In this document: in pieces, positions 3,410 through 46,596 of the stretch
Numbering within the stretch: the stretch's first letter is position 1
Layout: every line of letters starts with the position of its first letter
Translations under genes and position numbers: made by a program
The notes under the pieces: model-generated
What the model was told of the DNA's origin: nothing
Databases searched by the model: none
The model's input: the letters and a program-made list of their open reading frames with translations, nothing else
From: a virus
Lineage: Duplodnaviria > Caudoviricetes
DNA length: 64,000 bases
Virus record (IMG/VR): IMGVR_UViG_3300020576_005620
Location: 1 to 64,000 of that record
Direction: 5' to 3' (one strand)

Positions 3410-3898
3410 ATGGAATTTTTCAAGATAATAACAGAATTCTCAACCATTCCAAAAACAGATGACATAACTCTTGATTTTTTCAACTTTCTAGAGCAAAATT
3501 ATCCTATCACTTACAATAAGCTGTCTATGTTTTATTCTGATAATACTTCTCATGATATGGATGTAAATCCTAGAATAGCTTTGTATGACTGGGATGATCT
3601 TCTAAAAAAGGAAAATTTCAATAAATTTCTTTTTGCTATCCATCATAATTGGAATGATTTTACTTCTCAGGAGTACATTTGCTGTAGATGTAAAGACCCT
3701 CTAGAATTTGCTTGTAAAGAGCATAAACTATACAATTCTTATGAGGATCATATTTCAATCTCTTCTTATACTCATTTAGGTTTTGATGGGGCATATTTTG
3801 AAGAGAATCTGTACTGTAGGAGTTGTATAGTTAAAAGATTCAAAAAGATTATTGAGAAGATTGAACTTGACGAAGACGGAGTAAATTTCTATGTTTAA
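3410..3898 (+). CDS. Hypothetical protein with CxxC pairs
   Basis: 162-aa ORF with CCRC and CRSC. Confidence 0.5.
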   Translation: MEFFKIITEFSTIPKTDDITLDFFNFLEQNYPITYNKLSMFYSDNTSHDMDVNPRIALYDWDDLLKKENFNKFLFAIHHNWNDFTSQEYICCRCKDPLEFACKEHKLYNSYEDHISISSYTHLGFDGAYFEENLYCRSCIVKRFKKIIEKIELDEDGVNFYV

Positions 3899-37685: not shown

Positions 37686-37775
37686 TTTGCAAAGAAAGGG
37701 TAATGAGCGGAGCAGAAACTCTCGTTATTACATCGCCTGTTGTCTGTAACTTCATATCAAGACAGCCTTTGCAAA
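37686..37775 (+). ncRNA. ~90-nt structured RNA, copy 1
   Basis: TTTGCAAAG/CTTTGCAAA closing stem with two internal hairpins; near-copy at 40157-40250. Confidence 0.7.
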
Positions 37776-37783
37776 CAATTTAA

Positions 37784-38486: not shown

Positions 38487-38750
38487 ACTAACCCATAAGC
38501 GGCTATAGGGTTAGTAGTCCAGCCTGAGCAATGTTCTACGAGGTGTTGACGATTCACCTGGCGTCACATTGATCTAGTAAATATGGTAGAATAAACCTAG
38601 ATAATCTCAGGATCATAACAATTTAGGTAATCCCCGGTAAACGGGAGAGGAAGTTTAGTAAGAATAGGTGATTTCCTTTCGGAAGTCTGACCACTGCGCC
38701 AGCCCTGCAGCCCTTGGATAAATTACTACACCGCATAATGGGATTACTTA
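38487..38750 (+). ncRNA. Candidate pseudoknotted ncRNA
   Basis: ORF-free, GC-richer; helices 38523-28/38606-11, 38627-34/38740-47; crossing pairings 38547-51/38562-66 and 38534-39/38586-91. Confidence 0.55.
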
Positions 38751-39994: not shown

Positions 39995-40004
39995 CATTTA
40001 CAAT

Positions 40005-40157
40005 TTCCTATGATCTCGAAAGAGAGTGAAATGGCTCATGCTATGGGTTTACTAGCATACTAAAAACCCTGCATTTTCTACCCTACGAGAACCTTTTGCC
40101 AAAGTTGGGTACAAGCATCCGTATGCAGGTTGATCTTGTAAATTTCTCTCATAGGAA
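40005..40157 (+). ncRNA. Candidate ~150-nt pseudoknotted ncRNA
   Basis: TTCCTATGA/TCATAGGAA closing helix; crossing pairings GGGTTT/AAACCC and TACAAG/CTTGTA. Confidence 0.55.
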
Positions 40158-40250
40158 TAATTGCAAAGAAAGGGTAATGAGCGGGATAGCAAGCTCTCGT
40201 TATTTCCAACCTGTGTCTGTAACTTCATATCAAGACACCTTTGCAGTTAT
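40157..40250 (+). ncRNA. ~90-nt structured RNA, copy 2
   Basis: Near-identical to 37686-37775, with stem-preserving changes. Confidence 0.7.
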
Positions 40251-40252
40251 CT

Positions 40253-40328
40253 GGCCTTGTAGCATAGCGGTTAGTGCGCCATCCTGTCACGGTGGAGTGC
40301 GAGGGTTCGAATCCCTTCAAGGTCGCCA
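40253..40328 (+). tRNA. tRNA-Asp(GUC)
   Basis: GGCCTTG/CAAGGTC, CT-GTC-AC loop, GCCA. Confidence 0.93.
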
Positions 40329-40363
40329 AGTTTTGATTCCCCTAAGTTAGTTGCCTTCTTATA

Positions 40364-40573
40364 ATGAAAGTATACTTAACTTTTTTTCATATTGATTATG
40401 AGAGCACTGTCTGCCTTTCGGTTCACTCCTCTAAAGAGGGTGCAATAAAAAGAATAGAAGAGAGCTTAGTGTCAGATGATAATGGTGACAAATATGAATT
40501 TGACTCTGAATATTGTACGTGGTATCTTAACGGATATTCATATTCAATAGAAGAAGAAGATTTGTTAGACTAG
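40364..40573 (+). CDS. Small acidic phage protein
   Basis: MKVY......DYE......V.SSKE.A pattern. Confidence 0.5.
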   Translation: MKVYLTFFHIDYESTVCLSVHSSKEGAIKRIEESLVSDDNGDKYEFDSEYCTWYLNGYSYSIEEEDLLD

Positions 40574-40860
40574 GGGAATCGAAGGTTTAAGGAGTTGCCA
40601 CTCCTTAGATGAGTTTACGTAGATCTCATACAACTACGAGCCGTGTAAGCTGGCACAAGCTGCCTTTTTGACTCAGGGTTAAGTCTAACTCTAGCGTCCG
40701 CACTCGCGTTAAAGTGATAAGTTGTTTCCTGATTTCTTGCATTAAAGGAAATTAGATCGCTCCCCTAGCGTTCAAGAAAAAAGGGTCGTTTACGTAGGGT
40801 TCTAGAACAACCTGCGTATCTTTGGGGGAATAAATAGTGGCAACTATCCCCCTTACGATT
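40570..40860 (+). ncRNA. Candidate ~290-nt ncRNA with serial pseudoknots
   Basis: CTAGGGGA/TCCCCTAG closing helix; several hairpins whose loops pair with the next segment; 10-nt complement 40593-40602/40836-40845. Confidence 0.65.
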
Positions 40861-40862
40861 TT

Positions 40863-40949
40863 GGAAGGTTGGCTGAGTGGTTAAAGCAACGGTTTGGAAA
40901 ACCGTCACCTCTTAGGGGTGCATAGGTTCGAATCCTATACCTTCCGCCA
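40863..40949 (+). tRNA. tRNA-Ser(GGA)
   Basis: GGAAGGT/ACCTTCC, TT-GGA-AA loop, long variable arm, GCCA. Confidence 0.93.
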
Positions 40950-40960
40950 AGGAGTTACAA

Positions 40961-43118: not shown

Positions 43119-44029
43119 ATGAACTCGCAGGACGCATACTAGGGGTAGTTAACAAACATTTCCTAGAATTTAACTACCCCCTAATAACTAAAAACACTAA
43201 CATACTGCCAGAAGACAAATCTACTTTATTTGTTTGTAGCGGTATGCAGGTAATACAAGATAACTTTACTGATCCGGTTTTGGAAAGGTGTTCTAGTTTA
43301 CAGTCTTGTATCAGAACAAATGACATTGATCTAGTAGGTGATGGGTCGCATCTTACCTACTTTGAAATGTTAGGAAACTTTTCCTTCCAAAACAATGACT
43401 ATGATTCCGCATGTCTAATGTGGAATAGAATCATAAGAGAGCTTCATCTTCCAGTTAGTCATATAACAGTTCATCCTACACAACAAACTCATTCTCTTCT
43501 GTGGAAGGGATTGGGATATCTTGTTGTTGAAGATGATTCTTGTGTATGGTCTAATGGAAATATAGGGGGCTATTGCTGTGAAGTCTTTTGTGATGATCTA
43601 GAAATAGGGAATCTTGTTAACCCATTAGAACACTCTGTGGATGTTGGATTTGGGTTTGAGAGACTTGTTCAAGTCCTTGAAGGCAAGGAAAGAGTTGATG
43701 AAACCTCTATTTTTGATACCTCCCTCCCACCAATATTAAGAGACCATATAAGAACACTGACTTCATTTAACAATGCAAGTGTAGAACCAGGATCTAAAGG
43801 TCCTAACAGTATTTGCAGACAATTAGTGAGAAGAATCATTCAATATGAATCTCCTAATTTACCAAGTTGGTTGAATGTTTGGATTGAAAAGGAGCAAAAA
43901 CTCCTAGAACAAAAGCAGAGTCTTTTAATTAAGTACAAAGATCAATTTGTAAACAAACCATTTGAGTACTGGTACCAAACTTATGGCTTAACTGAGGAAG
44001 AAATAACTCAGTATCTTGGCTCTATTTAG
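43119..44029 (+). CDS. Miniature alanyl-tRNA synthetase catalytic core; N-terminus split across two frames
   Basis: LPEDKSTLFVCSGMQ, SLQSCIRTNDID.VG.GSHLTYFEMLGNFSF, EIGNLV, VDVGFGFERL, DH.RT, PG.KG...I.R.L.RR; no editing or C-Ala domain. Confidence 0.85.
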
Positions 44030-46188: not shown

Positions 46189-46537
46189 GGGGCTGTCAGG
46201 CTTCGATGGTGTACTAGATACCTTAGTTGCAGGGCGTGGATGTATCCTTGGCCACGTAAAAATGGATATAAAAAATAAGCGACAAATCATACGCTTTCTT
46301 GGGTTAATTACCTAAGCCGCTGAAAGATGGACGAGTTAGAGTACTCTGATGCGGACGAATTGAACTAACTAAGCTCAAAAACTTTTGTTTAAGGTTGGGA
46401 GTCGAAAATTGAATTAAACAAGACTTCAGATAGGTTTGTCCTTCCCAAAATCTGATTTTACTAAATAAGGAAAAACTCTGTAGTAGCTGACGTTGAAGGT
46501 AGATCAGAAGGGGGTTCGATTCCCCCCAGCTCCACCA
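46189..46537 (+). ncRNA. ssrA: tmRNA
   Basis: GGGGCTG...TTCGA 5' end, GGGGG-TTCGATT-CCCCC-CAGCTCC-ACCA 3' end with G3.U70; tag frame GAC AAA TCA TAC GCT TTC TTG GGT TAA (46281-46307). Confidence 0.95.
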
Positions 46538-46568
46538 AATTTTAAATGGTTAAAATCCATTAAACTTT

Positions 46569-46596
46569 AGGGGTCCCAATTGGGACCCCCTTTTTT
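46569..46596 (+). terminator. Intrinsic terminator after the tmRNA
   Basis: GGGGTCCC-AATT-GGGACCCC followed by C and T6. Confidence 0.85.

Follow-up and report, generated by a model that had tools for sequence, protein, structure and literature searches.

A predicted modular, structured RNA inherited with tRNA-Ser(GGA) in the tRNA island of an uncultivated phage

T4 RNA C and RNA D are located in a tRNA cluster and processed from tRNA precursors, and the GOLLD and ROOL RNAs often adjoin tRNA genes. Outside phages, the MALAT1/MEN-beta RNAs are directly followed by a tRNA-shaped element (mascRNA) at which RNase P sets their exact 3′ end, and the 3′ UTRs of tobamoviruses and tymoviruses carry a series of small pseudoknots directly upstream of the tRNA-shaped 3′ end of the mRNA. 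T-box leaders are multi-helix tRNA readers of 200 to 300 nt, whose UGGN bulge pairs with the NCCA end of a tRNA. The two T4 RNAs are small, structured, encoded among tRNA genes, and expressed in infection, and their function is still unknown (PMC9697503). In GOLLD, ROOL, and manA, complementary loops make intermolecular kissing contacts that build multimers (10.1101/2024.12.08.627333; 10.64898/2026.07.01.735769).

The locus examined here lies in the first 64 kb (positions 1 to 64,000; "the window") of a 194,459-bp IMG/VR record (IMGVR_UViG_3300020576_005620) from an uncultivated phage. The + strand carries all large open reading frames (ORFs) and all tRNAs. The window holds 12 tRNA genes, every one with an encoded CCA, together with a tmRNA and genes for a mini alanyl-tRNA synthetase (mini-AlaRS), an RNA ligase, and a nicotinamide phosphoribosyltransferase. 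Like T4 RNA C and RNA D, the element is encoded within a phage tRNA cluster, between tRNA-Asp and tRNA-Ser(GGA), and its neighbors are as follows.

40253-40328, + strand: tRNA-Asp
40364..40573, + strand: 69-aa ORF (from the ORF list, with translation); the stop codon and the 5′ strand of P1 overlap
40863..40949, + strand: tRNA-Ser(GGA), CCA encoded, found by ARAGORN and Rfam; directly 3′ of the element in every lineage

The 69-aa ORF has a weak match to DUF7336 (E = 0.0023) and a homologue at 93% identity. Eleven of the 17 nucleotide differences between the two fall at third codon positions, with five amino acid changes, and from this bias the ORF itself looks coding. The mini-AlaRS (43244-44029, 261 aa) comprises the catalytic core only. 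Because 339 proteins of 143-457 aa, mostly from metagenome contigs, match it at E values up to 1e-10, it represents a widespread stand-alone family; the copy in lineage L006 (see below) is 84% identical, and the next relatives are about 56% identical.

The initial annotation, made from the letters of the window, had proposed an unrecognized noncoding RNA at this site, and the Rfam search came out as that proposal predicts. No family of Rfam 15 matches 40574-40862 at gathering thresholds, and at E values up to 10 there are two chance-level hits only (≤15 bits); the families covered include RNase P RNA, 6S, SRP, tmRNA, group I/II introns, riboswitches, ribozymes, GOLLD, ROOL, manA, Y RNA, and T-box. 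ARAGORN (-ps80, introns allowed) finds tRNA-Ser(GGA) alone in 40300-40960. Unlike T4 RNA C and RNA D, to which it has no sequence or Rfam relation, the element is about twice as long, modular, tied to tRNA-Ser(GGA), and known here from sequence alone. It resembles GOLLD, ROOL, and manA, large RNAs often carried by phages, as a conserved multi-helix RNA, but matches none of them even at E up to 10 and is far smaller than GOLLD or ROOL. With MALAT1/MEN-beta it would share the logic of the 3′ end, the cleavage being predicted for the phage element; that system, however, is eukaryotic and uses a tRNA-like structure, whereas the phage element precedes a real tRNA, and the sole hit of the mascRNA family (E = 1.9) falls on the T-arm of tRNA-Asp. 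Similar to the T-box bulge, UGGC occurs in two invariant loops of the element, and tRNA-Ser ends in GCCA. Yet there is no T-box model hit (E up to 10), neither a specifier loop nor a terminator/antiterminator switch was found, and what follows the element is a tRNA gene, not one for an aminoacyl-tRNA synthetase. In contrast to the plant RNA viruses (tobamoviruses and tymoviruses), the tRNA here is real and presumably cut off, and only one or two pseudoknots are plausible. The element is a new, lineage-restricted RNA family of a general kind already known, and it belongs to none of the families compared.

All motifs that the initial annotation had read from the window are present at, or adjoining, their assigned places. 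These are an 8-bp closing helix (40570-77/40761-68), a hairpin with loop UGCC (40591-95/40600-04), a hairpin with loop GGCA (40834-38/40843-47), an exact 10-nt complement (40593-40602/40836-40845), and three hairpins with downstream complements, in an element that ends where tRNA-Ser(GGA) starts (40863). Chance tests on the single sequence gave moderate results. The RNAfold energy is −92.5 kcal/mol (z = −2.83 against dinucleotide shuffles); compared with 1295 windows of 300 nt from the same genome, the GC-corrected residual z is −1.68 (rank 61), the GC content of the element being 44% and that of the genome 39%. Five pseudoknot-like candidates compare with 1.3 ± 1.4 in shuffles (P about 0.04, post hoc test), and the exact long-range complement of 10 nt has a P of about 0.014 against shuffles (also post hoc). 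The strong support for the fold comes from relatives and not from the window alone.

Relatives were scarce. Within the genome of the phage, blastn and model R1 detected no paralogue of the element, and blastn detected no relative of the spacer among GenBank phages. IMG/VR yielded no close relatives of the neighboring 290-aa and 702-aa proteins, and the 290-aa protein retrieved itself only from a set of 5.8 billion proteins. By these searches, close kin of the phage are absent from GenBank phages and from IMG/VR. Exact patterns also retrieved no relatives: the P2 hairpin and the tRNA-Ser arm in viral_contigs, two invariant blocks in metagenome_contigs, and a 38-base pattern invariant in four lineages in viral_contigs and genome_contigs. 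Contigs of the same phage (L002-L005, L019, and L021) carry an identical element and are hence uninformative. Neither nhmmer nor model R1 matched the element in the loci of mini-AlaRS relatives at about 55% identity (L010-L014) or in the locus of a 38%-identical homologue of the 69-aa ORF (L018).

Four lineages have the element: the window and three on metagenome contigs (L006, L016, and L022). L006-L009 were reached via the 93%-identical copy of the 69-aa ORF, L016/L017 via a 40%-identical homologue of it (HMMER; model R1 match, 286 bits), and L022/L023 via cluster members of the gene downstream of the tRNA. Domain 1 of the window (defined below) is 79-85% identical to that of the other three, which are 89-93% identical to one another. 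Over the whole element, the window and L006 are 84% identical, which is about the level of synonymous sites in the neighboring ORF. At that level, conservation of sequence alone is no proof of selection, and the case rests on where substitutions are placed and not on their scarcity.

Several other observations were made in these contigs. In L008, about 1825-1830 (aligned to window positions 40734-35), the 5′ strand of P6 lacks 2 nt, which reflects either a population variant or an assembly error. In L022 (196-855) and L023 (15-674), a public gene call of 219 aa crosses part of domain 1 and the entire tRNA-Ser gene and is probably an over-extended version of the downstream 128-aa gene. Upstream, the intergenic stretch 40005-40157 is 91.5% identical between the window and L006, the adjacent 159-aa gene just 58%, and this stretch is another conserved noncoding island. 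A 100-nt island at 38500-38600 has 95% identity to L006 amid large indels.

The element consists of two predicted domains. The first, of about 195 nt, contains the hairpins P2, P3a, P3b, P4, and P6 as well as a small hairpin; P1 closes it in all of the four lineages except L016.

40572..40768, + strand: domain 1 (D1), multi-helix core, in all four lineages; CM R1 matches L006, L016, and L022/L023
40572..40582, + strand: 5′ strands of P1 (40572-77 with 40761-66) and P1b (40580-82 with 40757-59)
40585..40610, + strand: P2 hairpin (40585-95/40600-10), loop UGCC (40596-99) invariant in the four lineages
40609..40638, + strand: P3a hairpin (40618-22/40634-38) and candidate stem of pseudoknot 1 (40609-13/40625-29)
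40645..40663, + strand: P3b hairpin, invariant loop GGCACA (40652-57)
40675..40692, + strand: P4 hairpin (40675-80/40687-92), a G.U to A-U change; loop differs in all four lineages
40694..40716, + strand: small hairpin (40694-96/40705-07) and pseudoknot 3 candidate; loop 40701-04 can pair with 40713-16
40728..40756, + strand: P6 hairpin, 11 bp, variable loop, two double changes and two wobble changes
40757..40772, + strand: C-rich segment, 16 nt, identical in all four lineages; contains the 3′ strands of P1b and P1

The second domain is a shorter fold that adjoins the tRNA.

40782..40862, + strand: domain 2 (D2), Y-shaped, about 81 nt, in the window, L006, and L016; absent from L022/L023
40782-89/40855-62, + strand: P7, the closing helix of D2, which uses the last 8 leader bases
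40791-98/40811-18, + strand: D2 hairpin 1, double change at 40797/40812 (G-C to A-U)
40824-28/40848-52 with 40834-38/40843-47, + strand: D2 hairpin 2, loop GGCA

Comparison of the lineages shows that this fold is under selection on the + strand. The consensus fold of the window and L006 has −73.6 kcal/mol (alifold), against −45.7 ± 4.9 in column-shuffled alignments (z = −5.7, 0 of 150), and its structure conservation index (SCI) is 0.83, against 0.61 ± 0.06 in shuffles. When the MFE fold computed from the window alone, without knowledge of L006, was confronted with the L006 substitutions, 10 of its 88 pairs were broken, compared to 17.0 ± 2.6 under random placement of the same substitutions (P = 0.005). 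The 10 broken pairs cluster in three helices that the consensus drops. Two parts of the MFE fold, the helix 40612-19/40644-51 and the stem 40652-55/40661-64, were rejected because they are broken in relatives.

The refined model, applied to all four lineages, has 94.5% of its cells paired. Double changes occur in eight pairs, representing about seven events among only four closely related lineages (79-93% identity) in which many helices are invariant; this compares with 3.4 ± 1.3 such pairs in shuffles (0 of 500) and 0-3 in slid-partner controls. The alignment (A5) was fitted to the model, and the same columns occur in the MAFFT alignments A2 and A4. P6 has two of the double changes, and further ones are found in P2, P3b, P7, the small hairpin (40694-40707), and domain 2 hairpin 1; they arise on different branches, including L016-specific and L022-specific ones. 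Specifically, P2 has a G-C to A-U double change at 40594/40601 and an A-U to G.U change, P3b has a C-G to U-A double change at 40650/40659 in L022/L023 and three one-sided wobble changes, P6 has C-G to U-A and A-U to G-C, and P7 has U-A to A-U at 40786/40858. Homologue covariation, one of the checks that had been proposed for the element, is found in its hairpins.

The signal also has a strand. The + strand consensus of −73.6 kcal/mol compares with −56.3 for the reverse strand, and the SCI of 0.83 with 0.72; there are 16 G.U cells, and many changes are from G.U to A-U or G-C. The stretch does not encode a protein, given the frame-breaking indels of 1, 2, and 4 nt between lineages and the lack of any + strand ORF of at least 30 aa. 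Compensatory changes, strand asymmetry, and no coding potential are the generic marks of a conserved structured noncoding RNA. With compensatory changes in four lineages and no Rfam match, the proposal of an unrecognized structured + strand RNA holds.

Within domain 1, the loops behave differently: UGCC of P2 and GGCACA of P3b are constant, whereas the loops of P4 and P6 vary freely. The closing helix, inside which the initial annotation had placed the consecutive hairpins, is retained in part. The 5′ strand of P1/P1b is kept in the window, L006, and L022, but L016 has unrelated coding sequence there and no substitute 5′ strand for P1 upstream. The 16-nt C-rich segment is unchanged even in L016, which is without its 5′ partner.

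L022/L023 show the modularity of the element most directly: domain 1 and the invariant C-rich segment are followed by six T and then by the tRNA, domain 2 being gone. Domain 1 is the constant core and domain 2 an optional add-on. The distance between the element's end and tRNA-Ser(GGA) is 0-7 nt in every lineage. In three lineages, the 69-aa ORF lies upstream. L016 has a 161-aa gene in its place, with the homologue of the 69-aa ORF 1.1 kb downstream, and the element still ends at tRNA-Ser(GGA). The element goes with the tRNA rather than with the ORF. The 161-aa gene of L016 has its stop codon (3573-3575) within the 5′ strand of P2, so that coding sequence and element overlap by about 10 nt.

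The 12-nt loop of hairpin 1 in domain 2 contains an 8-nt palindrome (40800-40807), which is the same in the window, L006, and L016; palindromic hairpin loops can mediate RNA dimerisation. The two domains also share an exact 10-nt direct repeat (40613-22 in domain 1, 40788-97 in domain 2). The domain 2 copy has two changes in L006, and the domain 1 copy differs at one base in L022/L023 only. Elsewhere in the window, related Y-shaped three-way junctions of 90-100 nt occur at 37686-37783 (z = −3.5) and 40157-40252 (z = −3.0), directly 5′ of tRNA-Ser(UGA) and tRNA-Asp, respectively. Both share with domain 2 a short A-rich motif that ends in GGGU. The model of domain 2 (R2) did not detect the other Y-shaped pre-tRNA leaders, and we do not claim homology among them.

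The layout of the island bears on how the element would be expressed. Between 37 and 47 kb, the sole strong + strand terminator is at 46570-89, immediately after the tmRNA (46189-46589; tag peptide DKSYAFLG). A scan of 40574-40862 found no terminator-like site, and there is none between element and tRNA; likewise, this stretch has no G+C-rich hairpin with a T run that could serve as the intrinsic terminator of the upstream ORF. The T run that begins 6 nt past the hairpin at 40824-52 abuts the tRNA and leaves no room for a promoter. A promoter-like site at 40500-40528 was given no weight, its class being no commoner than in shuffles and the site being missing from L016. Given the + strand genes and the sole strong terminator after the tmRNA, the element most likely is part of one long tRNA/mRNA transcript. 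The position of that terminator, the only strong one on the + strand in 10 kb, suggests one transcription unit for the whole tRNA/ORF island.

These observations show 40572-40862 to be a conserved, modular, structured + strand RNA that is passed on as a unit with tRNA-Ser(GGA). We propose, with moderate confidence, that it is co-transcribed with this tRNA and freed by RNase P and that domain 1 persists as a stable RNA. In this scheme, the element would be transcribed inside the long + strand transcript of the tRNA/tmRNA island. The RNase P cut at 40862/40863 that matures the tRNA would also set the exact 3′ end of the element. The freed domain 1 would then persist as a stable RNA and could be recognized through its invariant loops, UGCC and GGCACA, and the invariant 16-nt C-rich segment. 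Our best guess for its cellular role is one tied to tRNA or translation during infection.

The element could also have a role in cis alone. As a leader or 3′ UTR without function in trans, it would shield the upstream mRNA's 3′ end once RNase P has cut, keep the pre-tRNA from misfolding with its neighbors, and modulate how RNase P processes tRNA-Ser by occluding leader positions −1 to −8 in P7 of domain 2. We regard this explanation as a tentative but serious one. Its 5′ border is always the stop codon of a protein-coding gene and its 3′ border the tRNA; the final 8 bases of the leader are paired in P7, where the U-A to A-U double change occurs; and the two further Y-shaped folds also lie directly 5′ of tRNAs. 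The stop codon of the upstream gene is within P1 (P2 in L016), so that terminating ribosomes must unfold the 5′ end, and a 3′-UTR role would fit this location too. In E. coli, RNase P cleavage can be controlled by structured 5′ leaders (PMC8925977). However, the six helices, invariant loops, and invariant 16-nt single-stranded segment of domain 1 far exceed what exonuclease protection or spacing needs, domain 2, which makes the contact with the leader, can be lost, as in L022, and the domain 2 model misses the other leader modules. Given the complexity of domain 1, the invariance of its loops, and the dispensable domain 2, we prefer a released RNA, only slightly, over a leader that acts in cis.

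A further, doubtful possibility is that domain 1 is a self-contained new class of phage RNA with tertiary structure, formed by pseudoknots 1 and 3 and by a contact between UGCC(A) of P2 and (U)GGCA of P3b. Its UGGC loops would capture the 3′-terminal GCCA of tRNAs (tRNA-Ser, for example) or build multimers by loop-loop pairing between molecules, as manA, ROOL, and GOLLD do, and domain 2 may add a second UGGCA loop and the palindromic 12-nt loop. The UGCC loop of P2 does match GGCA of the P3b loop, both being in domain 1 and both invariant, and we treat this putative contact as no more than a lead. The island shows no enrichment of TGGCA/TGCCA motifs.

The architecture of the initial annotation, with three serial H-type pseudoknots inside the closing helix and the loops 40596-99 and 40839-42 kissing, is improbable as a whole. 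Every one of its motifs exists, and the pseudoknot candidates and the 10-nt complement are modestly above shuffles, but the closing helix is absent in L016 and no crossing helix covaries among the four lineages; plain hairpins alone are confirmed. In pseudoknot 1 (40609-13/40625-29 and 40618-22/40634-38), all 20 stem positions are invariant, so no covariation signal is possible, and the only three substitutions in 40609-38 fall one in each of its loops, which measure 4, 2, and 4 nt. A nested helix, 40611-17/40668-74, fits this region equally well, with one position unpaired in most lineages. The second pseudoknot fails: its GACU/AGUC stem is broken without compensation in two of the four lineages (AGUC, UGUU, AGUC, and AGCC in the loop segment, opposite a constant GACU), its connecting loops of 0-2 nt are sterically tight, and the region is accounted for by the plain hairpin P4. 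Pseudoknot 3 has partial support and is the best candidate among the three. Its first stem covaries (G.U, G-C, and A-U among L006, L016, and L022; register-shifted in the window), its second keeps 4 bp in every lineage (CACU/AGUG in the window, GCAC/GUGC elsewhere), and its third loop is A-rich in three lineages; the crossing stem, however, shows no covariation.

The kissing pair proposed between the two domains fares worse. Both loops are invariant where present, with no covariation, but in L022/L023 the whole domain of the partner is absent while the UGCC loop stays invariant, and therefore the contact cannot be essential. The exact 10-nt complement on which it drew is real in the window, but its pair 40594/40844 is broken in the other lineages with domain 2, where the G-C to A-U change of P2 is perfectly compensated in the local hairpin and mismatched to the distant strand. 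The complement arises by coincidence from two stems of the window that resemble each other. More generally, pseudoknots and kissing loops read off one sequence are unreliable.

It is very unlikely that the element is a functionless spacer that folds by chance and is conserved only through recent exchange of a block between phages. Its fold energy is unremarkable among windows of the genome, its identity is about that of synonymous sites, and the block 40000-40950 is much more alike across lineages than the flanking genes (55-77% identical), as would follow a recent exchange. Yet substitutions avoid paired positions or are compensated there, the compensation recurs on several branches, and the loops include both invariant and freely varying ones. 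Least credible of all is that the stretch contains a small hidden protein gene, a degenerate tRNA, or a site that acts as DNA (origin or recombination site), for although two minus-strand ORFs (38 and 47 aa) overlap it and the region is a rearrangement hot spot between lineages, the indels break any frame, relaxed ARAGORN finds no tRNA-like gene in 40300-40862, and the G.U changes and strand asymmetry point to a + strand RNA.

In a current view, the tRNA islands of large phages sustain translation when host or phage degrades host tRNAs. Besides its tRNAs, the island of this phage encodes a tmRNA, an RNA ligase, and a mini alanyl-tRNA synthetase and includes several folded spacers that are conserved. 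That an RNA of about 200 nt stays with one tRNA through rearrangements, while gaining or losing a module, suggests that tRNA genes of such phages move as cassettes with RNA partners of their own. If the element is released and stable, it would join T4 RNA C/D, GOLLD, and ROOL among phage tRNA-linked RNAs, as a small and tractable example of them.
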